This document shows, piece after piece, positions 5,998-58,058 of a stretch of 64,000 nucleotides of DNA. How positions within the stretch are numbered: the first letter of the stretch is position 1; every line of letters starts with the position of its first letter. The notes under the pieces were generated by a model that was not told the origin of the DNA, searched no databases, and saw only the letters and a program-made list of their open reading frames with translations. The stretch is taken from the NCBI GenBank assembly GCA_029261035.1, contig JAJDCD010000004.1:132765-196764 (forward strand), read 5' to 3'. Source of the stretch: Candidatus Omnitrophota bacterium. Lineage in GTDB: Bacteria; Omnitrophota; Omnitrophia; Omnitrophales; JACROU01. The translations under genes and the position numbers were made by a program.

Positions 5998-6045
5998 TAA
6001 TATTCCCGAAACTAAGGTTTGATTTTTTAGAATTGATGATTTGGA

Positions 6046-7254
6046 CTAAGCTTTACAAACTCTTGCAAATTTTCTCTTCCCACACTGAATAATTACTTCT
6101 TGATCTAAATCAATTTCAAGCTTCGTATCCGTTATTTTTTCTTGATTAACTTTCACCCCACCCTGTTCTATTAGCCGGCGCGCTTCAGATTTACTACTAA
6201 CAAGCTTGATTTCAAACAACAAAGGGCCTATTTCCATCGAACTCTCTTTAAAAGTAAATAAGGGCATATCCTCAGGTAATTTTTTATTCTTAAAAATATG
6301 CTCAAATCCTTCATAAGCTTCTTCTGCTCGAGACTCATCATAATAAAGTGAAACGATTTGCTTTGCTAATTTAACTTTCATTTCTTTGGGGTGAATTTTT
6401 TCTTTATTCAAATCATTCTCTAAAGCATCACATGTAGCTCGATCCCAACCCGTAAAGTAGCGCATATATCGAAGCATTAAAGTATCTGAAACAGACATGA
6501 CTTTACCAAAAATTTCTGAAGGCTCCTCTTGAACTCCAATATAATTACCCAAAGATTTCGACATTTTTTGCACACCATCCGTTCCTTCAAGAATAGGTAA
6601 TGTTAAAACAGCTTGAGGAAACTTGCCATAATCCCTTTGTAATTCACGGCCCACTAATAAATTAAATTTCTGATCCGTACCACCTACTTCTACATCCGAA
6701 TCCACAACCACAGAATCATAACCCTGAAGCAGGGGATATAACAGTTCAATCACGGCTATGGGTAGATTCGATTTAAAGCGCTTATTAAAATCATCTCGCT
6801 CCAGGAGACGCGCCACAGTATATCGAGAAGTCAATGTAAGGAATTCCGTTGGAGACAATGCATCCAACCATTCGGAATTGTATCGAACCTCAGTTTGTTT
6901 TTTATTTAAAATTTTAAAAACTTGTTCTTGGTAAGTAATTGCATTTTGTTTAACCTCTTCTTCAGATAACGCTTTACGCGTTTCCGAAACACCTGAAGGG
7001 TCTCCAATACGCGCTGTAAAATCTCCAATAATAAATACAACAGTATGTCCAAGCTCTTGAATTTCACGAAGCTTTCTTAAAGGAACCGTATGCCCCAAAT
7101 GAATATCCGGAGCTGAAGGATCTGCGCCATACTTAACCCGCAAAGGCCTTTTCTCTTTCGCAGCGATTTCTAGCTTTTTAGAGAGTTCTTCTTCAGAAAT
7201 AAGCTCTTCCGCACCCTCTTTAAATACATCAATCTGATCTTTGACTGATTTCAT
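6046..7254 (-). CDS. tyrS: tyrosine--tRNA ligase
   Basis: Class I HIGH motif (HLGH), a KMSKS motif and a C-terminal S4 domain. 402 aa. Confidence 0.9.
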   Translation of the reverse strand: MKSVKDQIDVFKEGAEELISEEELSKKLEIAAKEKRPLRVKYGADPSAPDIHLGHTVPLRKLREIQELGHTVVFIIGDFTARIGDPSGVSETRKALSEEEVKQNAITYQEQVFKILNKKQTEVRYNSEWLDALSPTEFLTLTSRYTVARLLERDDFNKRFKSNLPIAVIELLYPLLQGYDSVVVDSDVEVGGTDQKFNLLVGRELQRDYGKFPQAVLTLPILEGTDGVQKMSKSLGNYIGVQEEPSEIFGKVMSVSDTLMLRYMRYFTGWDRATCDALENDLNKEKIHPKEMKVKLAKQIVSLYYDESRAEEAYEGFEHIFKNKKLPEDMPLFTFKESSMEIGPLLFEIKLVSSKSEARRLIEQGGVKVNQEKITDTKLEIDLDQEVIIQCGKRKFARVCKA

Positions 7255-7289
7255 AACATCCTCATAAAAGACAATTGATTTTATCTAAA

Positions 7290-7325
7290 ACAAAAAAAGG
7301 TCGCTCTAAAAAATAGAGCGACCTT
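7290..7325 (-). terminator. Rho-independent (bidirectional-looking) terminator downstream of rpsA
   Basis: GGTCGCTCT-N7-AGAGCGACC hairpin flanked by an A-run on one side and a T-run on the other. Confidence 0.55.
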
Positions 7326-7360
7326 TGTAAAACAGAACTACTCGATATAATTAACGACCA

Positions 7361-8986
7361 TTAAGATGCGCTAGAAACAGCTTCTTCAATAAGTCCTAAT
7401 GCAATCTTACGACCTTCCACATCGACCGTTAAAATATTTACCTCAATTTCTTGATCCACTTTAAAAGAATCTTCTAAGTTTTTAGATTGAGACTCAGGAA
7501 TCTTTGAAATATGAAGCAAGCCTTCAAAGCCGCCCACTAATTCAAGAAAAACACCAAAGTTTATTACTTTAGATACCTTTCCCTTAATAACAACCCCTTC
7601 TTTAATTTCTTCTGGTATAGAAGGCCATGGGTCTTCTTCTAACTGCTTAACTCCAAGAGATATTTTTCTTTCGCCAATATCCACAGAAAGGATTTTAGCT
7701 TTTACTTTATCTCCTTTATTCACAAATTCGCTAGGATGATTGATTTTTTTCACCCAAGACATATCAGAAATGTGAACGAGCCCACCAATTCCTGGTTCTA
7801 GCTCAACGAAAGCACCGTAATCGGTAAGATTACGAACTTCACCTTCAATAGTCTCACCCTCTTTATACTTGTCGTTAGCTTCACTCCATGGATTTTGTTC
7901 AATTTGCTTAATCCCAAGAGCAATTTTACGGCTTTCTTTATCGCAGCTCAAGATGATAGCTTCAACCTCATCACCAATCTTAAGAATCTCAGATGGATGC
8001 GTAATACGTTTCGTCCAAGAAAGCTCACTGATATGAACTAGTCCTTCAATTCCTTTTTCAATTTCAATAAAAGCACCATAAGGAAGAATGTTAACTACTT
8101 TCCCTTTGACTCTTTCATTAATTGGGAATTTATCACTCACACCATCCCAAGGAGATGCTTGGCATTGTTTTAGACCTAATGAAATTCTTTCTTTCACTTT
8201 GTCAAAACCAATAACCTTTAAATCCAACTCTTGGTTTAAAGAAACGATTTCACTTGGGTGAGAAATACGCCCCCAGCTAATATCCGTGATATGAAGCAGA
8301 CCATCAATACCGCCTAGGTCAATAAAAGCACCAAAGTCTGTAATGTTCTTAACACGACCTTTAACAATTTGGCCTTCTTCAATTTCACCCAACATTTTAC
8401 TGCGCGCTTCTTGCTTTTCACCTTCGAGAAAATCTTTTCTACTTAAAACAACATTCTTTCTCTTAGAGTTAATTTTTACGATTTTAAATTGACCACCTTG
8501 CCCTAAAAATTGGTCAAGATTTTTAGTTGGTTTCAAAGCAACTAAACTAGCAGGTAGGAAAGCTTCCATCCCAACATCAACCATAAAACCACCGCGAACT
8601 TTTCTGAAGATTCGGCCTTCTACAACATCCCCCTCTTCCATCTTAGAAAGGATGTCATTCCAACATTTGACCTTATCTGCTTTTCTTTTAGAAACAACAA
8701 CCATTCCTTCATCATCTTCTTGGTTCTCTAAAAGCACATCAATCTTCATTCCAATTTCCACTGTATGCGGATCTGTAAACTCATCTAACTTTAAAACACC
8801 TTCTGATTTATAGCCAATATCGACTAACACCTCTTTATTGCTTAAAGCAACTACCTCTCCCGAGATAATTTCACCTTCAGCAAAATTCTTAAAGGTGTCT
8901 TCGTATAGAGCTAACGTACTTTCAGAAGTTGTTCCTTCTTCGAGTTCGCTTTCAGTTTTGTTAAGTTCAAGTTCAGTTGATACCAT
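7361..8986 (-). CDS. rpsA: 30S ribosomal protein S1
   Basis: 541 aa with about six tandem S1 RNA-binding repeats (recurring GxV.GxV..i.dfGaFv). Confidence 0.9.
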   Translation of the reverse strand: MVSTELELNKTESELEEGTTSESTLALYEDTFKNFAEGEIISGEVVALSNKEVLVDIGYKSEGVLKLDEFTDPHTVEIGMKIDVLLENQEDDEGMVVVSKRKADKVKCWNDILSKMEEGDVVEGRIFRKVRGGFMVDVGMEAFLPASLVALKPTKNLDQFLGQGGQFKIVKINSKRKNVVLSRKDFLEGEKQEARSKMLGEIEEGQIVKGRVKNITDFGAFIDLGGIDGLLHITDISWGRISHPSEIVSLNQELDLKVIGFDKVKERISLGLKQCQASPWDGVSDKFPINERVKGKVVNILPYGAFIEIEKGIEGLVHISELSWTKRITHPSEILKIGDEVEAIILSCDKESRKIALGIKQIEQNPWSEANDKYKEGETIEGEVRNLTDYGAFVELEPGIGGLVHISDMSWVKKINHPSEFVNKGDKVKAKILSVDIGERKISLGVKQLEEDPWPSIPEEIKEGVVIKGKVSKVINFGVFLELVGGFEGLLHISKIPESQSKNLEDSFKVDQEIEVNILTVDVEGRKIALGLIEEAVSSAS

Positions 8987-14439: not shown

Positions 14440-14542
14440 ATTTAAAGTAATCTAAAACCTTCTTACAACGTGTCATTCCCGAAACCTTTTGTCGGGAATC
14501 CATGATATATCAAACATAACTATACGTTTTACCAAAACCTAG

Positions 14543-14575
14543 ATCCCCGACACAAACATTCGGGGATGACAAACT
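14543..14575 (+). repeat. REP-like hairpin ATCCCCGA-N9-TCGGGGATGACAAACT
   Basis: Family member in the pheA-scpB spacer. A second imperfect hairpin lies at 14472-14505. Confidence 0.55.
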
Positions 14576-18574: not shown

Positions 18575-19648
18575 TTATAAATAATATTCCATTTTCTTTC
18601 GCTTCAATTCATCAATCACTTTTCTAATATCTTGCGCTCGATCTTTGCTTGCAACCAAAATAGCATCTTCAGACTCAACAACAATCAAGTCTGAAACCCC
18701 TACCAAAGCAACCAGCTTTGAATTTCCATGTACAATATTTTTTCCACTCTCAATAGAAACTATCTTTTGGATACTTGCATTCCTATCTTTATCTTTTGGC
18801 CACAACCCATCAAAAGCGGTCCAACTTCCCACATCCGACCAGCCAAAATCTCCAGGGATTACAAAAACATTTTTAGCTACTTCCATCAATGCATAATCTA
18901 TTGAAATAGATTTCAGTTTAGGATACAGCTGCTTTAACTTTGTTTTAAAGGACTTCTTCCCAATTTGATTTGCTATTTGAGATAATCCCTTAGAAAGAGC
19001 CGGTTGATATTTTTGTAGCTCCTCTAACAACAACGAAACTTTCCATACAAACATCCCACTATTCCAGTAATATCGTCTCGTTTGCACAAAACGCTTAGCT
19101 TTTGCAAGGTTCGGTTTCTCCACAAAACGTTTCACTTTATATACAGGAGTCCCTTTAATAGCCTCAGCCTTTTTACCTCTTTCAATATAGCCAAACCCAG
19201 TCTCTGGTGTCTTTGCAACAATACCAAAGGTTACATGACATTGATTCGACTTAGCAGTCTGAATACCCGCACTTAAAACTTTTAAGAACTCTGTCTTCTG
19301 AGAAATAATATGATCTGCAGGCAAACAAACCATAACTGCATTTGGATCTCTTTTATAAATAATAGAAGCCCCTAACCCAATCGCAGGAGCTGTATTTCTA
19401 CCCACAGGCTCCACAACAAAATTTTTACTCGGAATTTGAGGAAGCACTTTTTTAATTTCTTTAAGCTGAACTTCCTGTGTCAGGATAATTATCCGCTCAG
19501 GGGGAATTGTAGAACGAATACGTGAAACCGTTTCCTCAATTAAAGTCTTCTTGGAACCAAACGAAAGTAACTGCTTTGGTTTTCTTAAACGACTCGCTGG
19601 CCAAAATCGAGTCCCTGCTCCACCAGCCATAATAACTGCCCAATTCAT
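18575..19648 (-). CDS. manC: mannose-1-phosphate guanylyltransferase
   Basis: Nucleotidyltransferase motif IMAGGAGTRFWP and similar length to GMPs. Adjacent to a phosphomannomutase gene. Confidence 0.8.
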   Translation of the reverse strand: MNWAVIMAGGAGTRFWPASRLRKPKQLLSFGSKKTLIEETVSRIRSTIPPERIIILTQEVQLKEIKKVLPQIPSKNFVVEPVGRNTAPAIGLGASIIYKRDPNAVMVCLPADHIISQKTEFLKVLSAGIQTAKSNQCHVTFGIVAKTPETGFGYIERGKKAEAIKGTPVYKVKRFVEKPNLAKAKRFVQTRRYYWNSGMFVWKVSLLLEELQKYQPALSKGLSQIANQIGKKSFKTKLKQLYPKLKSISIDYALMEVAKNVFVIPGDFGWSDVGSWTAFDGLWPKDKDRNASIQKIVSIESGKNIVHGNSKLVALVGVSDLIVVESEDAILVASKDRAQDIRKVIDELKRKKMEYYL

Positions 19649-19698: not shown

Positions 19699-19726
19699 CT
19701 CATTTGCCTTTTTCCCCGACCCAATT

Positions 19727-19811
19727 GTCATCCCCGACTTGATCGGGGATCTAGTGTCTTTTGCATTCAACTATCCAATGGATCCCGGATCATGTCCGGG
19801 ATGACAAACTA
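19727..19811. repeat. two adjacent REP-like hairpins in opposite orientation
   Basis: GTCATCCCCGACTTGATCGGGGATCTAG (19727-19754) and GGATCCCGGATCATGTCCGGGATGACAAACT (19781-19811). Confidence 0.6.
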
Positions 19812-19822
19812 CTTTTAAAAAG

Positions 19823-21181
19823 CTACTTTATTTTTTCCAGAAGTTCATTAACACGGTCTTCGATAGTTCTTCGGATCTCTTCAAGTCGCTTTTCGGTATT
19901 TGCTTCAAAACGCATAACAACGACAGGCTGGGTATTAGAAGCTCGAATCAACCCCCACCCATCTTCGAATGTAACACGAGCTCCATCAATGTCATTCACA
20001 TTGAGACCTTGTCGTTTAAAACTTTCTGTAGCTTCCTTAACCAGTTCAAACTTTCGATCGTCAGAACATTCTCTTCGAATTTCAGGGGTAGCAAAAGTTT
20101 GAGGGATTTCCGAAAGCATTTCTGATAGTGATTTATCCGAGTTTGCAACAATCTCTAATAACCGACAAGCCGTATAAACACCACTATCAAAACCAAACCA
20201 TCTGTCTTGATAAAAAATGTGCCCACTCATCTCTCCCGCTAACTCAGAATCCGTCTCTTTCATTTTTGCTTTAATTAAAGAGTGCCCTGTTTTCCACATA
20301 ATGGCTTTACCACCATGAGCTTCGATATCTTCATACATCAAGTTGCTGCATTTAACATCTCCAATAATCGTAGCTCCCTTTTTCCTTGATAAAACTTCTC
20401 TAGCAAGCAAGATCATCAAGCGATCACCAAACACGATATTTCCTTCGTTGTCCACAACGCCAACACGATCACCATCTCCATCAAAAGACAATCCTAAATC
20501 CACCTTGGATTTTTTAACTTTCCCTATCAATTCTTCTAGATTTTTAGGGACCGTAGGATCTGCTGGATGATTAGGGAATGTTCCATCAAGCTCTGTGTAC
20601 ATTTCCTCTGTCTTACACCCCAACTTCTTAAATACTTCAGGAGCTACAACCCCCGCCATTCCATTCGCACAATCTATAATAATAGACAGTTTTTTCTTCA
20701 ACTTAATTTGACTCACAATTTCATCAATATATTTATCTAAAATTTTAACGGAAGATGCCTTCCCTTTCCCTTCAAGAAAAGTTCCAAGTTGCATCATCTT
20801 ATACAACCCCTGAATCTCTGAGCCATGCATCGACGTCGTACCCACACAAATTTTTAAACCATTGTGATCCGGAGGATTATGACTGCCCGTCACCATAATT
20901 CCACCATCCACTTTCAAATGATGAATCGAATAATAAAGAGCCGGCGTCGTAACTAGACCTAAACGCTTTACATCCATCCCCGTCGAAGTGATCCCATCCA
21001 CTAACGCTTTCTCAATTCTTTTGGAACTAACACGACAGTCATGACCGACCGTCACAACTTTCTTCTTTGCATGCTTCAGCTGAGTTCCATAGGCTTTACC
21101 AATCGCTTCAACAACCTCTGAGGTCAAATCCGTATCAGCAACCCCTCTAATATCATATTCTCTAAAAATTTGTGGGTTCAT
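19823..21181 (-). CDS. manB: phosphomannomutase/phosphoglucomutase
   Basis: Active-site phosphoserine loop TGSHNPPDHNGLK and metal-binding loop FDGDGDR. Confidence 0.85.
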   Translation of the reverse strand: MNPQIFREYDIRGVADTDLTSEVVEAIGKAYGTQLKHAKKKVVTVGHDCRVSSKRIEKALVDGITSTGMDVKRLGLVTTPALYYSIHHLKVDGGIMVTGSHNPPDHNGLKICVGTTSMHGSEIQGLYKMMQLGTFLEGKGKASSVKILDKYIDEIVSQIKLKKKLSIIIDCANGMAGVVAPEVFKKLGCKTEEMYTELDGTFPNHPADPTVPKNLEELIGKVKKSKVDLGLSFDGDGDRVGVVDNEGNIVFGDRLMILLAREVLSRKKGATIIGDVKCSNLMYEDIEAHGGKAIMWKTGHSLIKAKMKETDSELAGEMSGHIFYQDRWFGFDSGVYTACRLLEIVANSDKSLSEMLSEIPQTFATPEIRRECSDDRKFELVKEATESFKRQGLNVNDIDGARVTFEDGWGLIRASNTQPVVVMRFEANTEKRLEEIRRTIEDRVNELLEKIK

Positions 21182-21822: not shown

Positions 21823-24800
21823 TTATGCCGCTTGTGCGATTTGACGGTAAGATTCAATTTGCTCCTGTATCTCAGCTAGCACTCCAAGAACACCCAGACC
21901 TACTATCCAAGAGCTCCCTACCTGATTTAACCCTAATTTTCTTAAGACCCCTTCTCTATCAGAAGCCGCTAGTTGAGAAACTAATAGCAATACGGAAAAT
22001 AAAGGCGCTTTATCTAATTTTCCTCCAATGACGGTTTCATCAAAAGAAACAGATAGCTTATCTTTTTGTAGCACAACTTCTTCTCTTTGACTTTTAGAAT
22101 GAAGTTCTAAAACAGCCTGATTTTGAATCCATAAATCATCATAAGGTAACGGCACGATTCCTTGAGCTTTGGCTAATTCCCAAAGCCTTCTGAGTTGAGG
22201 TGATTTCTGATCAAAGTCCAACATAAAAATAATTTTGTCTTTATTGGATAAATTCTGAATTAAATCTTCCAACTCTTCTTGAGTCTGTTCTTCTAAAAAT
22301 TTTTGCGTTACTAGCAAAACTTTTGGATTATTATAATTTTGAGGTTTTAGATTTAAATATCGAAGCATATCTTCAAATTGAATTTCTTTTTCATCTGCTA
22401 AAACAAAACCTTTTATCTCTTCTGGCCAAACTGCTAAAGCTTCAACATCAAAAATTAAATTAGTTACTTCTACTACCGCAACAACATCCCCTAAACTACT
22501 ACCCAAACTTCTATTTATTCGTTGGCTTTCTCTTGAATTATCCTCAACCATTCTAATGTTTTCTCCTAAAATAACTTCATCTCCAACTGTTATAGAATTT
22601 AAAAACCTCTTCCCCTTTTCAATACCCGGAACAACAGCTCTCAATTTTCCAGTTTTGCGAGAACCGTCATTTAAGGTTACGGTAACGGTAGATAATCTAT
22701 TTATTATTTGTAAGAGTTCTCCAATTTTATTCGGATTTTCAAAATAAGGAACCTCTTCTCCCATACTACTTGCCTGAGTTGATAAATCTTCTGAGAACAC
22801 TCGGGTTCCTAAATTCAGTTTTTCATTAAATACCTGGGATAAGCCTGATGAATCAACAATCGTTCCGGTACGTCCTGGTCTTGCTTGAACAAAACGTACT
22901 ATTTCTTCCACTTTGGGCCCCATACTCCCTTTTGGGAATTGACCTTCTTCTAAATATTTAAGAAGCTGTTTTGGCAAGGGGCGTGACAACACTTCTTCTT
23001 CGGGAGAGCCGAAGTTAATGGTAACTTTAGGAACACCGGTTACAATCAATAAATGAGAGAAATCAAGTTCATGTGCTAATAGCTGTGAACTCCTATCTTT
23101 ATCATTCACCCCCTCAACTTTGGTAATATCTCCTAATTCATTCACAGACACAGGAATTCCTCCCCCACCAACAGCAACAACAACTTTTCCATCATTAACG
23201 GCTTCTCTAATATCTAATAAATCACTCTCTAGAATCGAATAAGGTTTAGGAGAAGGAACAACTCGACGGTATTTTTTAGGATCTTTAGGATCTTGAAGTC
23301 TTTGTTCTTTCAAATCCCAAAAGTTCACTTTCCTCAATCTTTCTGATTGTGTCCTAGTGTAATACTCTCCAACCGGCTTCGTCGGATCAGAAAAAGCAGG
23401 GTCATCCTCCCGCACAATGACATGTGTTTTATTTAAATGAAGTTTTGGCAAGCTGATTTGCAGTTCTGTTGAAAGTTCTTTCCAAGCTCTTTGAATATAT
23501 CCAAAAATATTTTCTTGCGTCTGATCTACGATGTCATATAAAGGCGGTAAACTATCTCTACGCCCGCTTGCAACCTCTGCTTCAAAGTGTTTTAGCAAAT
23601 CTCCAACTTGAGGCCCGTTTCCATGAACCAATAATATTTTATACCCCTGCCGATAAAGATCGACCACACCTCGAAGAGCCTCTTTTACATTTAAATACTG
23701 ACTCTCAGAATCTCTCTTTCCAGCTCTAGGCCCCTCTGTCATAATAAATGCATTTCCACCCAAAGCAATCACAACTCTTTTCGATGCTCCTAAACTATCT
23801 CCAAAAAAACTCTGAATCTCAGTAGCCCTCTTCAATAAAGACTTCCTCTCACCTGTCCCTGGCCCCTTAAAATAGAGCTGTCCTAATTTAAATTTTTTAC
23901 CCCCATTATCAGCAGGATTGTTATAACGAATAACTCCATAAAGAGCTCCCATCTTTAACAGAACTCCAAAAGAAGATGTGCTCAATTTTGATGAGTTTGA
24001 AGCAGGTGCTGCCCAGTCATAAATACCTAATATTTCCCCATCTTTAAATAACTTAATTCCTACAATCTTAATAATATCTAATAACTCTCTTTTAGAAAAA
24101 ACATCAAGCGCTTTAGCTTGAATAGGTTTTACTCCTCCTGATTTTCTGTCTAACAACATGAGGGGAATATCGAACCAAGCTGGTTTTTGCCCTAAAGAAG
24201 ATGCTTTAATTGTTTCAATAGTCCCAAAAGCCAATCTCTGGCGCGCACTCACAACACGTTGTCCCATTAAAGCTACCTGAGCCTCATCAGACTGTGCCCA
24301 TGACGCTTTCATCAATGTTGACTTTCTAAAGCCTCGAACCATTGATTCTTTATATTGAGAAGGTTTAAGCTCTGAAATCCGAGGTTGTATTGAGGAATAA
24401 GAAATCCGCTCCCTTTCAAAGAGTTTAGATAATCCAGATGTGTGAAATCCGCCCGAGACCAAGATGGCTTCCGAATGATTATTCTCTTTCAAATATTCTC
24501 TTATTTTTCTTAAAAAAGTCTCGTCCCTTTTCTCTACTTCTTTGTAAAAAGAAAGAGCTTTGGATATCGCCTCGCCTACACCAAATTCTGAATAAGCTTT
24601 TGTTTGGACTAAGGTTTCATACCGTTTAGGCGTGAGTTCTAAAGCAAGCAAGTCTTGAGTTAAATGAAATTGATGTGTTTTGAGAATTAATTCCGATTGT
24701 TCTAAAGAGAGAGCTATTTTTTCCCAGAGTAGGTTTGCCATTCGATCCACTTCATCAAATAAACCTTCTGAAAAAATCTCAGATTGAAGAATTCGATTCC

Positions 24801-25809
24801 TAGAAAGAGCGCTTAGCTGTGGATAATCCTTAAAAAGAAAACCTCTATCCTTAAATCTTGAATAAAACTGCTCTAGTAAAATTCTTAAAGAAGAAACAGG
24901 AGAACCTCGAGTATCATAATCACTGGAAAATAAAAGTTCCTGCAATTCATGAGCCCAGGGTTGAGCCATCTCCTGTTTCAAAAATAGTTGTGTTATTTGA
25001 TTCCATTCTGTTTTAGCTTGTTCTAAGTCTAATACTTGTTCTTGATTTTGAAGGGCATATAAACGAACTAAATTAGGATACTTCCATTGATGTTTTGCCT
25101 CTTTTAGATTTAACCCCAAGGTCTCTTCAGCCATCAAATATAAAAGATCTACATAAGAAGCCCAAGACTCTGATTCAGGTCTATTCAAAAAATAACGATA
25201 GAGCTTGAGAGATTTTTTACGAAACAACTTTGACGCTTGTTTATCTAGCAATAGTTTTTGTTTTTCCTTCCACTCAACTACTTGACTTTCTATCGCCATA
25301 ACTTCCTGAAACAAATTAAAATTTTTCCTGTATTGCTCGATAGACTCAATACCAATAACTCTAAGGTTTCCATCTTGAAGCAAAGCAAGCTCCGCAGCAT
25401 TAATTTCTCCTAGATCAACAAGGTGCTCCAGCACATTTTCATTCAATAACGGATCTTGATCCAACTGAAGGTAACTAGAGTCTAACGTTTCAACAGCCCC
25501 CTCAAGAAAAACAATCTTCACTCCTCTTTCTTTGGATAATCGTAAAATAAGCTCAGAGACTTTTCTTTGCCCCTGCGCATTACCATGAGCATCTTGAATA
25601 TGGATAATATGAGGGTTTTCAGAAGTAAAGGATTGAGAAAAGAGCTTTTGGCTCTGAATTTTTGCTAAGACAGAAGGAATAGAAACTGCTGAAGTCATAG
25701 GTGCTGAGAGAGTACTTGAAGAAGCGAAACCTAAACTATTTGAAGTTGCAACCAAACTCACAATTAAACTATAAGAAACTAATTTATATAAATATTGCTT
25801 TATGCCCAT
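21823..25809 (-). CDS. very large (1328 aa) putative secreted multidomain protein with an embedded carbamate-kinase-like domain
   Basis: N-terminal signal-peptide-like segment. Central region has carbamate kinase signatures VVIALGGNAF...LLVHGNGPQVG...VAVGGGGIPV...DKD...GSMGPKV. About 650 aa N-terminal and 330 aa C-terminal have no recognisable catalytic motifs (possible TraB/GumN-like GGFHTSG region). Confidence 0.6.
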   Translation of the reverse strand: MGIKQYLYKLVSYSLIVSLVATSNSLGFASSSTLSAPMTSAVSIPSVLAKIQSQKLFSQSFTSENPHIIHIQDAHGNAQGQRKVSELILRLSKERGVKIVFLEGAVETLDSSYLQLDQDPLLNENVLEHLVDLGEINAAELALLQDGNLRVIGIESIEQYRKNFNLFQEVMAIESQVVEWKEKQKLLLDKQASKLFRKKSLKLYRYFLNRPESESWASYVDLLYLMAEETLGLNLKEAKHQWKYPNLVRLYALQNQEQVLDLEQAKTEWNQITQLFLKQEMAQPWAHELQELLFSSDYDTRGSPVSSLRILLEQFYSRFKDRGFLFKDYPQLSALSRNRILQSEIFSEGLFDEVDRMANLLWEKIALSLEQSELILKTHQFHLTQDLLALELTPKRYETLVQTKAYSEFGVGEAISKALSFYKEVEKRDETFLRKIREYLKENNHSEAILVSGGFHTSGLSKLFERERISYSSIQPRISELKPSQYKESMVRGFRKSTLMKASWAQSDEAQVALMGQRVVSARQRLAFGTIETIKASSLGQKPAWFDIPLMLLDRKSGGVKPIQAKALDVFSKRELLDIIKIVGIKLFKDGEILGIYDWAAPASNSSKLSTSSFGVLLKMGALYGVIRYNNPADNGGKKFKLGQLYFKGPGTGERKSLLKRATEIQSFFGDSLGASKRVVIALGGNAFIMTEGPRAGKRDSESQYLNVKEALRGVVDLYRQGYKILLVHGNGPQVGDLLKHFEAEVASGRRDSLPPLYDIVDQTQENIFGYIQRAWKELSTELQISLPKLHLNKTHVIVREDDPAFSDPTKPVGEYYTRTQSERLRKVNFWDLKEQRLQDPKDPKKYRRVVPSPKPYSILESDLLDIREAVNDGKVVVAVGGGGIPVSVNELGDITKVEGVNDKDRSSQLLAHELDFSHLLIVTGVPKVTINFGSPEEEVLSRPLPKQLLKYLEEGQFPKGSMGPKVEEIVRFVQARPGRTGTIVDSSGLSQVFNEKLNLGTRVFSEDLSTQASSMGEEVPYFENPNKIGELLQIINRLSTVTVTLNDGSRKTGKLRAVVPGIEKGKRFLNSITVGDEVILGENIRMVEDNSRESQRINRSLGSSLGDVVAVVEVTNLIFDVEALAVWPEEIKGFVLADEKEIQFEDMLRYLNLKPQNYNNPKVLLVTQKFLEEQTQEELEDLIQNLSNKDKIIFMLDFDQKSPQLRRLWELAKAQGIVPLPYDDLWIQNQAVLELHSKSQREEVVLQKDKLSVSFDETVIGGKLDKAPLFSVLLLVSQLAASDREGVLRKLGLNQVGSSWIVGLGVLGVLAEIQEQIESYRQIAQAA

Positions 25810-40213: not shown

Positions 40214-40304
40214 AATGACTGATTTATAAAAAACTATCATCTGTCTCTGATATAATACGAGTCATTACCCACTTTCATCACTTATAAACTACCGAGGGAC
40301 TACC

Positions 40305-42539
40305 ATGAGACATCTCCTTTTTGTTCTATTATTTTTAGTTATTTCTACCCCTTTTGCTGAGGCCAGCATTATCGGAGCATTAGAGAACGTAACTCGACAA
40401 ATTGAGTCCGGAGGTTCATCTAGTAACAACACCTCTTCATCCTCCAGCTCAAGACCTTCTAGCACCACAAATACCAACCCCTCACAATATGAAACTCAAT
40501 ACCCAACACTCATGCCTTCAGACGGAAGCAGTGGCTCTGTTATGTCTATCGATCCAACAACAGGCACAGTGACTCAAAGCTCTTTAAATCCTGATGGCTC
40601 CAGAACGGTAACCGAAACAAACGCGGATGGAAATACAACAGAAGAAGTAATCCCTGAAGATCAACCGGATAGTGCCTCTTCTCTAGATTCCGAAACCGGA
40701 ATCACAACTACTTCCGTTGAAAACCCAGATGGGTCTCGTACTGTTATTGAAACGGATGCCGAAGGCAACATCGTAAGTTCAACACGTGTCCCATCAACGC
40801 AAACAACATCTGCCTCTGCTACAGATCCTGACACAGGCATCACAACAACATCTACTCGAAACGCAGACGGATCTAGAACCGTCACACAAACAGACGCGGA
40901 TGGAAATGTTTTAAATACGCGGAATGAACCCGCTCGTGGTTCAGGAAGATCTTCTGCTTCTTCTACAAATACAGATACTGGCGTTACAACAACTTCAACT
41001 CGCAATGCCGATGGCTCTAGCACAGTTACAGAAACAGACTCTCAAGGTAATACCCTCAGTTCGCGCAACGAGCCCGCCCGAGGATCACGCCCAGACTCTG
41101 CATCCGCCACCGACACCCGTACAGGAAATACAACAACATCCACTCGAAACGCAGATGGCTCTCGCACCGTCACTCAAACAGACTCTCAAGGAAATACTCT
41201 TTCAACACGAACAGAACCTAATAGAAATTCAACACCTTCTTTTGCATCTTCAACCGATTCTAATACAGGAATTACAACAACTTCGACTCAAAATGCCGAT
41301 GGCTCTCGTACGGTCAATCAAACAGACTCTAATGGCAACCTTCTCAATTCTCGAAGAGAACCTGCTCGTGGCTCGAGTCCAAGCTCTGCTTCTTCAACGA
41401 ACACCGATACAGGAGTCACTACAACATCGACTCGCAATGCAAACGGCTCCCGTACGGTTACTGAAACGGACGAGCAAGGAAATACATTAAATACTAGGAA
41501 CGAGCCTGCTCGTGGTTCCCGTCCAACATCTGCATCTGCCACAGATACAAATACCGGAATCACAACAACGTCCACTCGCAATACAGACGGTTCGCGTACC
41601 GTTACCGAAACAGACGAGCAAGGAAATACCTTAAATACAAGAAACGAGCCTGCTCGTGGTTCCCGCCCTACTTCAGCTTCAGCAACGGATACGAATACAG
41701 GCATTACAACAACGTCCACACGCAATACGGACGGATCTCGTACCGTTACCGAAACAGACGAGCAAGGAAATACCTTAAGCACCCGAAACGAGCCTGCTCG
41801 TGGAACAACCCCCTCTTCTGCTTCTGCGACAAACCCAGACACAGGAATTACAACAACATCAACACGTAACCCGGATGGTTCTAGAACTGTGACTCAAACG
41901 GATAAAGATGGAAATGTGTTAAATACACGCAACGAACCCGCCAGAGGAACAGGAACATCCTCCGCCTCTTCAACAAATACCGATACAGGTGTCACAACGA
42001 CATCCACTCAAAACGCAGATGGGTCTCGTACGGTTACAGAAACAGATAAAGACGAAAATGTTCTAGGCTCTCGCAACGAACCCGTATCAGGTACAGCCCC
42101 CTCTTCGGTAACATCAACAGATATGCTGTCAGGAGCACAAACAACCTCTACTATGAATCCCGATAAAAGCAGAACCCTTATCTTAAAAGACAAAGATGGA
42201 AAAGTAATTTCGAAAGAAACTACATATGGGTCCACAGGAATCGTTTCTAAAGTAACTTATAATAAAGATGGAACAGCTTTATTTATTCAAAAGGATGGAA
42301 GAGGTAGAACACTGATGGAAAAATCCTTCGCAAAAGTGCTGCAACCTAAATTTAGAAATCAAGCCATTGATATTCTATTTAACGTATCTAGACCGCAGGT
42401 GTACTCCTTACCTGGTTTTGCCAGCGCTCCTGGTTATCCAGCAACTCCAGACAAAACGGTTATCAATAATTCTTTAGGAGAAAAGATACAAGAGTACGAA
42501 GGCCCTCCTCGCGATTATGATGGGTCCAATTACCAGTAG
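40305..42539 (+). CDS. secreted Ser/Thr-rich tandem-repeat surface protein (putative adhesin-like)
   Basis: Signal peptide MRHLLFVLLFLVISTPFAEA. About 11 tandem 48-aa units (SASATDTNTGITTTSTRNxDGSRTVTETDxQGNTLxTRNEPARGSRPx), then a non-repetitive C-terminal domain. Confidence 0.75.
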   Translation: MRHLLFVLLFLVISTPFAEASIIGALENVTRQIESGGSSSNNTSSSSSSRPSSTTNTNPSQYETQYPTLMPSDGSSGSVMSIDPTTGTVTQSSLNPDGSRTVTETNADGNTTEEVIPEDQPDSASSLDSETGITTTSVENPDGSRTVIETDAEGNIVSSTRVPSTQTTSASATDPDTGITTTSTRNADGSRTVTQTDADGNVLNTRNEPARGSGRSSASSTNTDTGVTTTSTRNADGSSTVTETDSQGNTLSSRNEPARGSRPDSASATDTRTGNTTTSTRNADGSRTVTQTDSQGNTLSTRTEPNRNSTPSFASSTDSNTGITTTSTQNADGSRTVNQTDSNGNLLNSRREPARGSSPSSASSTNTDTGVTTTSTRNANGSRTVTETDEQGNTLNTRNEPARGSRPTSASATDTNTGITTTSTRNTDGSRTVTETDEQGNTLNTRNEPARGSRPTSASATDTNTGITTTSTRNTDGSRTVTETDEQGNTLSTRNEPARGTTPSSASATNPDTGITTTSTRNPDGSRTVTQTDKDGNVLNTRNEPARGTGTSSASSTNTDTGVTTTSTQNADGSRTVTETDKDENVLGSRNEPVSGTAPSSVTSTDMLSGAQTTSTMNPDKSRTLILKDKDGKVISKETTYGSTGIVSKVTYNKDGTALFIQKDGRGRTLMEKSFAKVLQPKFRNQAIDILFNVSRPQVYSLPGFASAPGYPATPDKTVINNSLGEKIQEYEGPPRDYDGSNYQ
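40550..42140 (+). repeat. intragenic 144-bp tandem repeats (about 11 copies, near-identical in the centre)
   Basis: The three consecutive central units are nearly identical at the protein level and at the nucleotide level. Antisense ORFs in this span are frame artefacts of the repeats. Confidence 0.8.
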
Positions 42540-42544
42540 ATTAG

Positions 42545-43095
42545 AAGAAGATTTTGTCATCTCCTCCTTGATCCATTTGTCATCCCCGAATGCTTTAATC
42601 GGGGATCCAGTCAGACAAAACGATTAATTTAGAAATTAAATAAAGCACAAACACATGGATCCCCGCCTTCGCGGGGATGACAGAAAAGCGCGGGAAGATA
42701 CAAGAATAGGACGGTCCACCTCGAAATTATGATGGAAAATTTTATGGGTAGATTTACGCTTGTCATTATTTAATTCAAAGACCCTAGATTCCCGCCTACG
42801 CGGGAATGACAAACACTTTTATTCATTCTTGTCATCCTGAACTAGCGCCTGCCCGCCGTCTTGCCCGCCACGAAAAACGGCGGGTCCGCCAGCTTATTAG
42901 GAGGATTGGGCGGGAAGGATCTCAGACTCAGAGATTCTTCGTCGCAAAGCTCCTCAGAATGACAGCTGTGTAGAAATTTAAATCCGTCATTGCGAGGCTA
43001 AAACAAAAAGAGCCGTGGCAATTTCAGGTTTTTACTTCTTATTCATCCCGAGATTGCCACGGCTCAATATGTCGATACCTCGCAATGACAGTTTT
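42545..43095. repeat. cluster of REP-like palindromic elements (BIME-like) in the 580-bp intergenic region
   Basis: At least six hairpins with GTCATC/GATGAC-type ends: 42578-42610, 42656-42682, 42786-42812, 42830-42895, 42921-42965 and 42987-43093. Confidence 0.7.
42697..42751 (+). repeat. degenerate duplicate of the 3' end of the repeat-protein gene
   Basis: GATACAAGAATAGGACGGTCCACCTCGAAATTATGATGG..TAG closely matches the gene terminus GATACAAGAGTACGAAGGCCCTCCTCGCGATTATGATGG...TAG. Confidence 0.55.
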
Positions 43096-43120
43096 TCTAT
43101 AAGCTAATGGCTGACAGCTT

Positions 43121-53407: not shown

Positions 53408-54490
53408 TTATTCCTGAGCCAAAACATTTTTATAAATTTCTAATGTTTCTTTCGCTGTTTTTTCCCAGCTAAATTCTGCAGCTTTCATTTGTCCTTTATG
53501 CACCAGCTCTTTTCTTAATTGATCATCTACGAGTATGTTTTCGATACCGATCGAGATTTCTTCTATGTCGTAAGGGTTTACTAGTTCTGCTGAGTCTTTG
53601 CCTAATTCTCCGAGACTGGAGTTGTTCGAGCAAAGCACGGGTGTTCCGCAATGAAAGGCTTCGATGAGCGGTAAACCGAATCCTTCGTACAAAGAAACAA
53701 AAGCTACCATTTCGGCTGCGCTATAAGCACAGCTGAGTATTTCGTCCGAAACGAACCCGGTGGTGATGACGTCTTCTTCTAATCCGTTTTGTTTGACGGC
53801 CTTTTCGAACTCGCTACTTCCCCATTGTTTTGCGCCGACGACTAAGAGTTTGGGGATGTCTTTTCTTCTTTTTTTGACTAGGTTAAATGCTTCGAGGAGT
53901 CGGACTAAGTTTTTTCTGGGTTCGATGGTTCCGACGCACAGGACGAAGGGGTCTGTGAGTCCTAGTTCTTTTTCTAAGATTTGTTTTGCGATATCTGTTG
54001 GTTTTTTGACGATGTTGTTGTCGGGTGCGATGTAGGTTACGGATATTTTTTCGGGTGCGATGCCTAAGTGTTCGATGAGGTCTTTTCTTGAGTTTTCGGA
54101 TACGGTGATGAGGTGGTCTGCTTTTTTAAAGCATTTTGGGAGCCATTTACTCCAGTAGTAGCGTGAGCTGAAAGACAAGTTTTGAGGAAATAGGTACCCG
54201 ATGATGTCGTGGGCTGTGATGATGACTTTTGAGTGTTTGAGTTTTTTGACGCCGAAGCCGGGGACGTGGAAGATATCAGCGTTGGATTGCTTGATTATGC
54301 GTGGCAGGGTTACTGCTTCCCAGTAGAGGCGGTTTGGGGTTTTTAGGTCGCCTGTGATGTTGCCGCCTACCTTTCTTAGGTCTAGGCTTGGGTCGTTGAT
54401 TTGTTCGATTGCCTTGATTAGATTGCCTACGTAACGTGGGATTCCTGTGGCGGTTCCGGTTAGGGTGTGGGTGTCTATGGTTAGGTTCAT
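53408..54490 (-). CDS. glycosyltransferase family 4 (GT1-fold)
   Basis: EGFGLPLIEAFHCGTPVLCS signature E-x7-E region. Higher GC than the genome background. Confidence 0.75.
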   Translation of the reverse strand: MNLTIDTHTLTGTATGIPRYVGNLIKAIEQINDPSLDLRKVGGNITGDLKTPNRLYWEAVTLPRIIKQSNADIFHVPGFGVKKLKHSKVIITAHDIIGYLFPQNLSFSSRYYWSKWLPKCFKKADHLITVSENSRKDLIEHLGIAPEKISVTYIAPDNNIVKKPTDIAKQILEKELGLTDPFVLCVGTIEPRKNLVRLLEAFNLVKKRRKDIPKLLVVGAKQWGSSEFEKAVKQNGLEEDVITTGFVSDEILSCAYSAAEMVAFVSLYEGFGLPLIEAFHCGTPVLCSNNSSLGELGKDSAELVNPYDIEEISIGIENILVDDQLRKELVHKGQMKAAEFSWEKTAKETLEIYKNVLAQE

Positions 54491-55643: not shown

Positions 55644-58058
55644 CTAAAATGGTAAAGAAGATTTATTTTTAAGTAAATAATATTTTGCATGTGCAATCAA
55701 GAAAACCTTGTTTCTAAAGAAAAAGAACCTTTTTTCTCCTAACTTCTTTTTCAAAATCTTAACATCATCGAATGGTTTATCGGCCTTTTTATCATAACCT
55801 AGCATGTAACTCTTATTAAACAAAGTCTCTATTAGCTTCTCTTTTTTTAACTGATTAAACTTAAACTCTCTAAGAATCTTGATAAATTTCCTATACTCAA
55901 TCTGCTTACCATGATACTCTTGCAACCTTGTAAGAATTTCGGATATTTCTGGAAACTCAGCCCTTGTTTCTGCTATTAAATTATTATTCAAAAACTCTGT
56001 ATAACTTGTAATAGCATATTTTAAGTCCTTTCTATCTACTTTGTGATTGCCATTATTGATAGCAGACTCGAATAACTTTGCAACAAAATATATTAAGTCT
56101 CTTGGACGCTTCGTAATAATCTCCTGTATTATTTCAAAAGGGTGCCTTTTCTCTTTAAAGTTAAAAAATTCCCTCCATGCTTTTTTTTCTAACAATTCAC
56201 TGTCGGACTCATCCAATTTTAATATATGCGCAAATCTATTCTCAATTAACTTTTTTAATAGGCCCGGATAATCTTCCCAGTTTATATAGTGAGCCATAAG
56301 AACTAACTTATCAGGCTCTGCTACCTCGTTGCGAATATAGTTGAATATATCTTCTCTTAAAAAAATAATTTGTTTAACCTCAACCTGAGAATCTTTACTA
56401 AGTAATTCTTTTTGTATTTTATTTTCTATCTCTAATAAAGTACTCATCATCTCTGATTGTATTTTAAGATCATTTTTGGGATCCCAAGTCTTATCTAAAT
56501 TGTCTGCTAAAACAATCACTTTATAGTATTTTTTTCTAATTGATGTAAAGTAATTACGCAAACATGCAGTTAATGGCGAAAGGTATTCTTTAAAAAGAGT
56601 CTCCATGACCTCGGGACCGGAAATCTCCCTTGAATTTGTTCTTCTAACATTAACTTCTCGAACAACTCCAAAAAAGTTAAGCTTAGTGAACTCTTCATTT
56701 TTTTCTACAAAATTTATTATAGCTTCCTCCTCATCAGTCATTGTTACACTATTTTTTTCATCAAGTATACGCTCCACAATAGAAATAGCTAGTTTTGAAA
56801 AAATTACTAATTTCCACACAGCAACAAAAAAGCTTATTCTAGAAGAATCAAATAGTTTGGACAGCTGAATGTCATCAAGCAATTCATCAGACTCAGGTTT
56901 CAAACTAACAATATAATTATTTTTTTCTTCTGGCAAATCATCAGATAATTTGATGTAGATAGCAGATTTTCCACTACCTTTTCGCCCAACAACAATCGAC
57001 TTTTTATAATTTAATGCTTTTTGATATGAAGCAGTATTAACAAAATAACTTAAGAGTTCCCGACTCTCATTCTCTGCTATGTCACACCCAATACCCAACT
57101 CGATTAAATTTGTTTCATGTTCTATGATTTCACTCTTCTCTTGCGTTGTATCAAAAGCTAGTTGTTTGTCCAACCAAGGACTAATAAATTCCTTTATTTC
57201 ATCAGAAATTTCATAAGTAACCAAAATATCATGGTAATCTAAAGGTGGTTTGAACTTTGCAGGTGCAAGCAACAAAACATCACATCCCCATCCACAAGCA
57301 ACTCCAGCATAAAAAGCATTTTTTGCGTTTTCCATAAATGAATTTTGATAATTCTCTCCTAAAAGATGAATAAGAACCACTCTTGCCTTTAAAAGGTTCT
57401 GAAAATACCAAGTTAATGTTTGATATTTAATTTCAGATAAATCATCTGCAACAAGAGATAGTGACTTATTGTCTTTATAATCAATAATATGGTCCGTAAG
57501 CTCTATTGAATCTTGAGTTGCAAGTTTACTTTGAATATAAAATATGTCTGTACTTTTAGAGGTTAGATTTTTAAAATTCACAAACTTATTTAAAAGATTA
57601 TTTTCAAAGCTTTTTTGCTGAAGGGCTTTCTGGATACAATATGAATTTTTAAAAGGTATATAACGAATATCTTTTAGAATAAATTCTTTGTAAATCTTAT
57701 TGGGAAACCCAAGCTCATTATTAACACTAATATTTTCATTAATTAAGATTAGAATATATTTATTTTTTGCTATAGCATATCCAAGCTCAAACAAAACATT
57801 GTGATTAAAATACGTCAGATCACACACAAAAACTTCACTTCCGTCAATTGCTGAAAGGATTTCCTTACTAATTGTAGTTGTTTGTTTATATTCCTCCCAA
57901 CTTCTAGCTTTATAAGTTTTTTGGTGTTGATTAAAGGCTTCAATCGCCTTTTTAATTGATTCAACATTGTTATCAGCTAACCCATTAGAACGTCCTTGAT
58001 AAGCAAAAAATATTTTTTTTTGTGGTAATTCAGAATTTTTTGATACCATTATTACCAA
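55644..58058 (-). CDS. tandem NDT/TIR-like Rossmannoid domains fused to a P-loop NTPase (candidate defence/conflict protein)
   Basis: Residues about 15-110 KIFFAYQG...EVFVCDLTYFNHNVLFELGYAIAKNKYILIL (nucleoside 2-deoxyribosyltransferase-like FE(L/I)GYA motif). Second degenerate copy ...NAFYAGVACGWGCDVLLLAPAKF. Walker A VVGRKGSGKSAIYI and candidate Walker B YKVIVLADNLD. About 400 aa helical C-terminus. About 29% GC. Confidence 0.55.
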   Translation of the reverse strand: MVIMVSKNSELPQKKIFFAYQGRSNGLADNNVESIKKAIEAFNQHQKTYKARSWEEYKQTTTISKEILSAIDGSEVFVCDLTYFNHNVLFELGYAIAKNKYILILINENISVNNELGFPNKIYKEFILKDIRYIPFKNSYCIQKALQQKSFENNLLNKFVNFKNLTSKSTDIFYIQSKLATQDSIELTDHIIDYKDNKSLSLVADDLSEIKYQTLTWYFQNLLKARVVLIHLLGENYQNSFMENAKNAFYAGVACGWGCDVLLLAPAKFKPPLDYHDILVTYEISDEIKEFISPWLDKQLAFDTTQEKSEIIEHETNLIELGIGCDIAENESRELLSYFVNTASYQKALNYKKSIVVGRKGSGKSAIYIKLSDDLPEEKNNYIVSLKPESDELLDDIQLSKLFDSSRISFFVAVWKLVIFSKLAISIVERILDEKNSVTMTDEEEAIINFVEKNEEFTKLNFFGVVREVNVRRTNSREISGPEVMETLFKEYLSPLTACLRNYFTSIRKKYYKVIVLADNLDKTWDPKNDLKIQSEMMSTLLEIENKIQKELLSKDSQVEVKQIIFLREDIFNYIRNEVAEPDKLVLMAHYINWEDYPGLLKKLIENRFAHILKLDESDSELLEKKAWREFFNFKEKRHPFEIIQEIITKRPRDLIYFVAKLFESAINNGNHKVDRKDLKYAITSYTEFLNNNLIAETRAEFPEISEILTRLQEYHGKQIEYRKFIKILREFKFNQLKKEKLIETLFNKSYMLGYDKKADKPFDDVKILKKKLGEKRFFFFRNKVFLIAHAKYYLLKNKSSLPF

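Follow-up and report, generated by a model that had tools for sequence, protein, structure and literature searches.

What does a bacterium make of a protein built, for most of its length, from one 48-residue unit repeated in tandem? The question is raised by a gene in a 64,000-nt stretch of a Candidatus Omnitrophota contig (here called the window, within which all gene coordinates are counted), which encodes a repeat protein of 744 residues. The Omnitrophota are uncultured and mostly ultra-small bacteria thought to be predators or parasites (PMC10066038; bioRxiv 10.1101/2023.11.21.568195). Their contact with other cells is little understood beyond giant proteins, and the repeat protein offers a small, tractable candidate for an envelope or surface protein. 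The explanation favoured here, to which we give about an even chance, is that of a multivalent adhesion or scaffold protein displayed at the envelope or surface, its reach and valency being set by the number of units.

The repeat units

Anchoring on the DGSRTV motif gave 12 recognisable units, and self-comparison by BLAST together with the structural model added a partial 13th, where the initial annotation had counted about 11. Alignment of the units recovered the 48-residue consensus given there, which for units 3-11 reads ASATDTNTGITTTSTRNxDGSRTVTETDxQGNTLNTRNEPARGSxPSS, with an invariant P-x-S-A-S-[AS] junction between units. The periodicity is far above chance, as nine units stand at an exact spacing of 144 bp, Tandem Repeats Finder (TRF) scores are 370-609 and the units share 60-94% of their residues. 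At the DNA level the picture is different from that first proposed, in which the 144-bp repeats, and the central copies above all, were taken to be near-identical. Within units 3-11, any two copies share 62-83% of their nucleotides (17-38% divergence), the closest pairs being units 8/9 (83%) and 7/8 (81%); TRF finds only about three copies with 80-83% matches, and the longest exact direct repeat in the array is 40 bp, followed by one of 23 bp.

The proportion of differences at synonymous sites (pS) between units ranges from 0.48 to 0.73 with a mean of 0.66, which is near saturation, while the mean at nonsynonymous sites (pN) is 0.18. The units are therefore old duplicates that have been held alike at the protein level by purifying selection.

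The protein is rich in Thr (20%) and Ser (15%), as had been noted, and contains neither Cys nor Trp. In units 3-11 Thr and Ser together make up 40% of the residues, hydrophobic residues 7.4%, and a single aromatic residue occurs in 432; the mature protein is acidic, with a net charge of -20. It was also observed that the basic residues of units 3-11 are almost exclusively Arg (38 R, 2 K), and that the equivalent positions are rich in Lys in homologues from other phyla (KTDKDGNVLSKE).

Relatives in the same genomic slot and changes in array length

The neighbours of the gene are housekeeping genes, on one side those for Dxs, IspA, XseA, YmdB, the 5-formyltetrahydrofolate (5-FTHF) cyclo-ligase and XseB, all on the minus strand, and, on the other side, those for an alpha/beta-hydrolase lipoprotein, a PRTase, sigma-70 and PPDK. 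Among GTDB species representatives the top YmdB homologues belonged to metagenome-assembled genomes of Candidatus Omnitrophota, at no more than 70% identity, and a tblastn search with the repeat protein of 80 loci around such homologues gave no relative. At one locus (L001) the synteny is the same, the hydrolase gene directly abuts that of the cyclo-ligase and the repeat gene is absent. A lineage-specific 3-kb insertion, which this locus suggested, was dropped as an explanation once positional orthologues appeared.

Two such orthologues are of use here. The shorter (P0051, at L083/L084) occupies the identical slot, with neighbours 55-82% identical to those in the window; its 223 residues carry 3 units and are collinear with residues 1-203 of the window protein, that is with signal peptide, leader motif, linker and units 1-3. 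The longer lies at positions 6001-8091 of locus L088, on a 2.17-Mb contig, and comprises 696 residues, 11 units and the same C-terminal tail; with neighbours 69-88% identical, L088 is the closer relative. Its protein is 71% identical to the window protein and collinear with it except for one clean gap of 48 residues, which corresponds to window unit 6. Between the two genes pS is 0.67 and pN 0.21, with the lowest pN values (0.135-0.17) in the units and the highest (0.38) in the tail. The tail is conserved only in the L088 orthologue, and a search of metagenome contigs with the C-terminal 144 residues (unit 12 onward) found no homologue.

The collinear orthologue, and pN much lower than pS, establish that the repeat protein is encoded by a genuine, selected gene. 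Selection acts in the plus frame, and it is in this frame that L088 differs by exactly one 48-codon unit; the antisense and off-frame open reading frames (ORFs) are shadows, the antisense ones having been dismissed as artefacts in the initial annotation. That the region might instead be an assembly artefact, or a non-coding repeat with a spurious ORF, had to be considered since repeat regions are prone to misassembly and since an exact-sequence look-up of the 744-residue protein in the protein collection returned no record. The units differ by 17-38% in their DNA, however, and are hence resolved by short reads, which makes the collapse of repeats feared in the initial annotation unlikely; moreover, the independent L088 assembly shows the same synteny, a collinear orthologue and pN much lower than pS. 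Next to no credence is left for an artefact.

In one conserved slot the array thus has 0 (L001), 3 (L083/L084), 11 (L088) or 12 (window) units, a natural length series that could be used to follow the growth of an array under purifying selection. These numbers, and the single unit by which L088 is shorter, show that array length changes by whole units between lineages, though at a slow pace in that of the window. Units 5 and 6 of L088, with 97% DNA identity and a shared 75-bp exact repeat, indicate a recent duplication in that genome; such a pair is lacking in the window gene. In the central array, unit-to-unit orthology between the window gene and L088 could not be resolved because of the saturation of synonymous sites.

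Copy-number variation, as predicted initially, is hence real between related genomes, and it would agree with a contingency locus, variable in phase or size, in which near-identical repeats recombine often and copy number varies between cells or strains; the 97%-identical pair with its 75-bp repeat in the sister orthologue would fit as well. For the window gene the recombinogenic, phase-variable part of that prediction is not supported. Its units reach 83% DNA identity at most, its longest exact repeat is the one of 40 bp, and identity above about 95% occurs only in L088. With units so divergent and synonymous sites near saturation, changes in unit number must be rare on an evolutionary scale rather than the result of rapid switching, and insertion or deletion of whole units preserves the reading frame and so provides no on/off switch. 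A contingency locus is accordingly regarded as very improbable.

Two observations were made on these loci apart from the array. The 580-bp spacer 3' of the repeat gene is filled with palindromic elements of the type TGTCATCCC ... GGGATGACA, e.g. GATCCCCGCCTTCGCGGGGATGACA, which are also present at window positions 14471-14571, 19726-19806, 8653 and 58251; GGRATGACA occurs nine times in the window against about one expected. Since only 11 bp separate the same two genes in L088, these short REP/MITE-like elements were inserted in the window lineage. The 2.17-Mb genome of L088 also carries a 3-unit paralogue (L099:4360-6429) with a different leader (MERALEKIP...), which in this single case lies directly 3' of an ECF sigma factor gene and of a 230-residue ORF without a Pfam match; the latter could be an anti-sigma factor.

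Predicted structure of the units

An AlphaFold model of three units, calculated from a 25-sequence alignment, gave a predicted local distance difference test score (pLDDT) of 80, a predicted template modelling score (pTM) of 0.37 and four strands per unit. The full-length model (pLDDT 75, pTM 0.30) consists of 12 sets of four antiparallel strands and three extra strands, with pLDDT 80-95 in the units and weaker values in the linkers. The check by AlphaFold that the initial annotation proposed thus supported an antiparallel module, and no global fold. Foldseek comparison with the PDB returned only local antiparallel-meander matches (propeller blades, the single-layer sheet of OspA, Rhs/teneurin shells), with template modelling (TM) scores of 0.17-0.30 for the three-unit model and 0.05-0.14 for the full-length one. 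The picture that emerges from the models is that of a string of small polar beta-sheets which would be stabilised by turn motifs. N-x-D-G or N-P-D-G and D-x-x-G-N are classic hairpin turns; a calcium-binding role for N-x-D-G and D-x-x-G-N was also considered and set aside, as it had given only a non-significant EF-hand match (E 0.98).

A 48-residue, four-stranded antiparallel unit has the size of a propeller blade, and the top Foldseek matches were PHL lectin, coronin, NHL and WD40 propellers, so that the 12 units might be the blades of one or two beta-propellers. The corresponding TM scores, however, are only 0.20-0.27 for three units and 0.09-0.14 for the full length, with rmsd values of 16-43 Å, and neither the pTM of 0.30 nor the model indicates closure of a ring. 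Hydrophobic residues at 7.4% are too few for the cores between blades, and relatives function with 1-4 units, too few to close a ring. Because both hydrophobicity and pTM are low, a propeller is disfavoured, as is an RHS shell, and we consider the former extremely improbable.

The resemblance to RHS/YD repeats (PF05593, TIGR01643) pointed out in the initial annotation required closer comparison. The core G-x-R-T-V-T-x-T-D-x-x-G-N of the unit resembles Y-x-Y-D-x-x-G-R-L, a beta-hairpin motif with D-x-x-G-N/R turns; one 48-residue unit equals about two YD hairpins. The unit profile matches P0134, a bona fide RHS protein with 475 bits to RHS_repeat, in 11 stretches with E 2.9e-13, in register with the protein's own period of about 47 residues (TDGEGNxTxxxxDALGNVxHQET), and hhalign aligned a window unit with an RHS unit over 28 columns at P 5.8e-4, albeit with a probability of 29%. 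Rhs/teneurin shells are among the local Foldseek matches, and some long relatives have variable C-terminal domains and HExxH motifs. All this could speak for a true RHS protein, forming a shell or the scaffold of a polymorphic toxin. Against it, the RHS_repeat Pfam model does not match the window protein (E>10) and only three of 22 relatives reach E>=0.47; no NCBIfam match was found; the aromatic Y of the YD motif is replaced by T, leaving one aromatic in 432 residues; and a flexible linker follows every 48 residues. The window protein contains neither the DPxGL autoproteolysis motif nor a toxin domain, its C-terminal 64 residues being a helix and a disordered tail, and with a pTM of 0.30 the full-length model scores no more than 0.11 in TM against Rhs and teneurin shells, and no more than 0.10 against those of Rhs. 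The hairpin motif is YD-like, with a weak similarity to YD/RHS hairpins, but the protein is not RHS; a shell or toxin scaffold has hardly any probability left.

Another likeness in kind is offered by the central single-layer sheet of Borrelia OspA, a polar antiparallel sheet without a hydrophobic core, variants of which are among the local Foldseek matches; the window protein differs from it in having no sequence relationship and a TM score of only 0.19-0.30. The staphylococcal SasG/Aap E-G5 rods are likewise polar single-layer beta-sheet surface proteins made of tandem modules, and an extended form is presumed for the window protein as well; here too there is no sequence relationship. SasG was not among the listed Foldseek matches, where OspA variants alone represent this type, and a search for literature on single-layer beta-sheet surface repeats found nothing relevant.

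A rare repeat family and its nearest known relatives

A word-indexed search found 35 relatives of the repeat protein, the best with 39% identity over half of the protein. An exhaustive search with a three-unit profile matched 369 of 1.84 billion cluster representatives at E<=1e-3 (33 at E<=1e-30), and the family is therefore rare. The window protein, with its 12 units, far exceeds the other members, which carry 1-6. Where the source could be read, the relatives came from Omnitrophica, a Brocadiales bacterium, Eisenbacteria, Hyphomicrobiales and 'bacterium BMS3Bbin10', and one member has a leader of planctomycete type (sub-threshold Planc_extracel match).

Three architectures were distinguished. 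In the first the units come after an N-terminal signal peptide in proteins 733-2524 residues long, which have coiled-coil and Ala-rich regions and variable C-termini, some with HExxH motifs. In the second, 2-4 units stand at the very C-terminal end of proteins unrelated to one another, about 500-600 residues in length, and in the third the units stand beside subtilase (S8), HExxGH protease or FGE-sulfatase domains. The helix motif which in the window protein follows the signal peptide (SIIGALENVTRQIE, IIGALENVTRQIE; the leader motif) is conserved, and of 165 family members 31 show the pattern GGLxGA[LM][DN]x[VI][TS]x[QR]I[DE] immediately before the array; when N-terminal, it begins right after the predicted A-x-A cleavage site of the signal peptide.

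Some members deserve separate mention. P0001, P0002, P0003, P0006, P0009 and P0101 are large secreted proteins that have the signal peptide, leader motif and repeat cassette in common; after the cassette come a conserved YFENELGG region, a coiled coil, an Ala-rich segment and C-terminal HExxH domains (HEYxHS, HEAGHG). Others end in different C-termini, and the layout recalls polymorphic effector or toxin proteins. P0042 (L085:102-2472; 266 residues with signal peptide, motif and 4 units) starts 2 bp after the gene of a VWA/Sad1-UNC-like protein of 522 residues, a single case which suggests an operon in that organism. The genomic contexts of P0003, P0036, P0037 and L092 contained no consistent partner genes.

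The family is barely covered by current domain databases. Scans of the window protein at E<=10 gave only a spurious CPSF_A match in Pfam and no family in NCBIfam, and the repeat profile, run against the sequences of the PDB, found no match below E 0.8. Among curated models Pfam PF19079, the collagen-flanked surface repeat (CFSR), comes nearest; its profile of 49 residues likewise describes tandem repeats of about 48-49 residues in secreted or surface-type proteins bearing a signal peptide. Weak matches to it were present in 13 of 22 relatives (best 1.5e-8), and P0007, with units 58% identical to those of the window, reached 27.9 bits where the cut-off is 27; for the window protein (E<=10) and the L088 orthologue (E<=1) there was no match. 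The window protein differs from CFSR proteins in that no collagen-like G-X-Y flanks were seen on reading its translated sequence and in that it carries the conserved leader helix motif. A search for literature on CFSR found none, so that no function can be transferred from it. Weaker still are the likenesses to TIGR04203 (RPT_S_cricet) and Pfam SSSPR-51, to which relatives gave sub-threshold matches centred on the N-x-D-G-S/T-x-T-V-T hairpin; all of them, at 12-21 bits, fell far short of the 60 required, and the window protein gave none.

The repeat protein does not overturn any established idea, and its kind is known, namely tandem-repeat secreted surface-type proteins with a CFSR- or YD-like hairpin. 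A curated model of the repeat and the leader motif would nevertheless annotate several hundred secreted proteins now called hypothetical.

Localisation and possible function

The N-terminus, MRHLLFVLLFLVISTPFAEA followed by S, has the features of a Sec substrate, with an n-region (MRH), a hydrophobic core of 11 residues (LLFVLLFLVIS) and a c-region with an A-x-A site (TPFAEA, then S), a layout that is kept in the orthologues; AlphaFold predicted a helix at residues 2-13 within it. The reading of the protein as secreted, on account of its signal peptide, is in keeping with these features. We infer that a repeat protein without an enzymatic domain is exported by the Sec route, and that the mature protein left after cleavage would comprise the short helix IIGALENVTRQIE, a disordered Ser-rich linker and an array of 12-13 autonomous modules of 48 residues. 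Each module would be a small four-stranded antiparallel beta-meander, held together by its turn motifs (TG, N-x-D-G-S, D-x-x-G-N) and not by a hydrophobic core. Joined by short linkers of P, G, S and R, the modules would form an extended, hydrophilic, Thr-studded rod or a string of plates outside the cytoplasm, the length of which would evolve by gain and loss of whole units in the central part.

That other environmental bacteria fuse the same modules, in 1-6 copies, to varied secreted payloads suggests that they bind, anchor or act as spacers at the envelope. The surface or adhesion reading is also consistent with the attachment-dependent lifestyle proposed for the Omnitrophota, which are thought to use large surface proteins for attachment as predators or parasites (PMC10066038; bioRxiv 10.1101/2023.11.21.568195). 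Their giant surface proteins ('Archaeovorins', dockerin-type), extracytoplasmic, repeat-rich and with a proposed role in attachment to host or prey (bioRxiv 10.1101/2023.11.21.568195; PMC10066038), resemble the window protein in phylum and richness in repeats; the latter, in contrast, is small (744 residues), without HEAT, dockerin or TSP3 domains and without transmembrane helices.

Several points weigh against a surface-displayed adhesin or scaffold. The signal peptide was called by eye, and with a pTM of 0.30 the geometry between units is without confident prediction. No secretion system is encoded adjacent to the repeat gene, so that passage through the outer membrane of a diderm is not explained, and the protein has no lipobox (there being no Cys), transmembrane segment, LPXTG or PEP-CTERM motif by which it could be anchored. 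The units are nearly without aromatic residues, an uncommon trait in repeats that bind carbohydrates, and the housekeeping neighbours give no functional hint.

At the extreme C-terminus (residues 731-744, positions 42495-42536) the motif YEGPPRDYDGSNYQ was found to be almost identical to its counterpart in L088, YDGPPKDYDGSNY, although the tail is the fastest-evolving part; it is absent from the 3-unit orthologue P0051. Its conservation is compatible with a sorting or anchoring signal, which it may be.

The richness in Thr and Ser, from which O-glycosylation was suggested in the initial annotation, admits another explanation, which can coexist with surface display, namely a heavily O-glycosylated, mucin-like coat or stalk whose units act mainly as carriers of glycans. 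The 40% of Thr and Ser in the units, the invariant P-x-S-A-S-[AS] junction and the Ser-rich disordered linker would suit such a protein, and the window does contain, as stated in the initial annotation, mannose-activation genes (manC-like, 18575-19648; PGM/PMM, 19823-21181) and a GT4 glycosyltransferase gene (53408-54490). These genes, however, lie 11-21 kb away on the opposite strand, unlinked to the repeat gene and among aromatic amino-acid, tRNA-synthetase and other housekeeping genes, and the window ORFs that were scanned yielded no family of protein O-glycosyltransferases or oligosaccharyltransferases. Furthermore, prediction places the Thr and Ser residues in ordered strands that have conserved turn motifs, and many of the Thr residues are replaced by Lys or Val in homologues. 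The serine-rich repeat glycoproteins (SRRP; Fap1/GspB) have S-x dipeptide repeats, LPXTG and a locus of accessory SecA2/Y2 and glycosyltransferase genes; the window protein is unlike them in its structured 48-residue units, in having no LPxT[GAS] motif and in its housekeeping neighbours. Glycosylation of the repeat protein is possible, without support from linkage, and a mainly glycan-carrying coat is judged unlikely, though it is the alternative that we take most seriously.

A bolder extension of the adhesion or scaffold reading, speculative and to be doubted still more than the glycan coat, starts from the architectures of the family. The leader helix (GGLxGALDxVTxQI) and the CFSR-like 48-residue repeats might together constitute a previously unrecognised mobile surface-targeting cassette, by which proteases, HExxH effectors and other payloads would be brought to the surface of the producing cell, or to that of a host or of prey, in a range of uncultured bacteria (Omnitrophota, a Brocadiales bacterium of the Planctomycetota, Hyphomicrobiales and others). 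On this view the window protein would represent an expanded version free of payload. Its flat Thr ladders (T-x-T-x-T on adjacent strands, 12 times) might bind to ligands of periodic structure, for example a glycan lattice, an S-layer or a mineral or ice-like surface, and the length of the array would then adjust the reach or avidity of the protein for an ultra-small bacterium that lives as an epibiont.

Features of the locus

The features of the gene and its surroundings are collected in Table 1. A consensus scan for a full -35/-10 pair at the site of the putative promoter element TGATATAAT gave none.

Table 1. Sequence features at the repeat-protein locus (positions within the window)
Feature	Position	Strand	Basis and remarks
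Putative extended -10-like promoter element TGATATAAT	40248..40256	+	Read from sequence; about 50 nt 5' of the start codon
Shine-Dalgarno-like GAGG	40294..40297	+	Sequence inspection; 7 nt before ATG
Complete coding sequence, repeat protein, 744 aa and stop codon	40305..42539	+	ORF; homologues down to E 3.5e-45; L088 orthologue with 71% aa identity
Sec-type signal peptide, aa 1-20, predicted cleavage between AEA and S	40305..40364	+	Inspection; layout shared with orthologues and relatives
Leader motif SIIGALENVTRQIESGG, aa 21-37, predicted helix	40365..40415	+	AlphaFold helix 22-37; family pattern
Ser/Thr/Asn/Pro-rich low-complexity linker, aa 38-76, predicted disordered	40416..40532	+	pLDDT <50 at residues 37-76; composition
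Units 1 and 2, aa 77-169, divergent, 45-46-aa period	40533..40811	+	Correspond 1:1 with units 1-2 of P0051 and L088
Units 3-11, aa 170-601, nine 48-aa units in strict 144-bp register	40812..42107	+	Four predicted beta strands each, pLDDT 80-95
Unit 12, aa 602-647, degenerate	42108..42245	+	Unit alignment; AlphaFold
Partial 13th unit, aa 644-676, three predicted strands, TGIVSKVTYNKDGTALFIQKDGRGRTLMEKSFA	42234..42332	+	BLASTP self-matches; AlphaFold strands 646-675
C-terminal tail, aa 681-744: predicted helix 681-694, then disordered, ending in YEGPPRDYDGSNYQ	42345..42536	+	AlphaFold; L088
Downstream intergenic region with short palindromic TGTCATCCC/GGGATGACA elements	42540..43120	.	Outside the protein; locus difference from relatives

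Elsewhere in the window, a minus-strand ORF of 1328 residues (21823-25809) has an amino-acid-kinase domain at residues 677-976 as its sole Pfam match, with large unannotated flanks. A second minus-strand ORF (55644-58058), of 804 residues and without a Pfam match, coincides with the segment of lowest GC content (0.305 against about 0.38) and may be foreign or fast-evolving.

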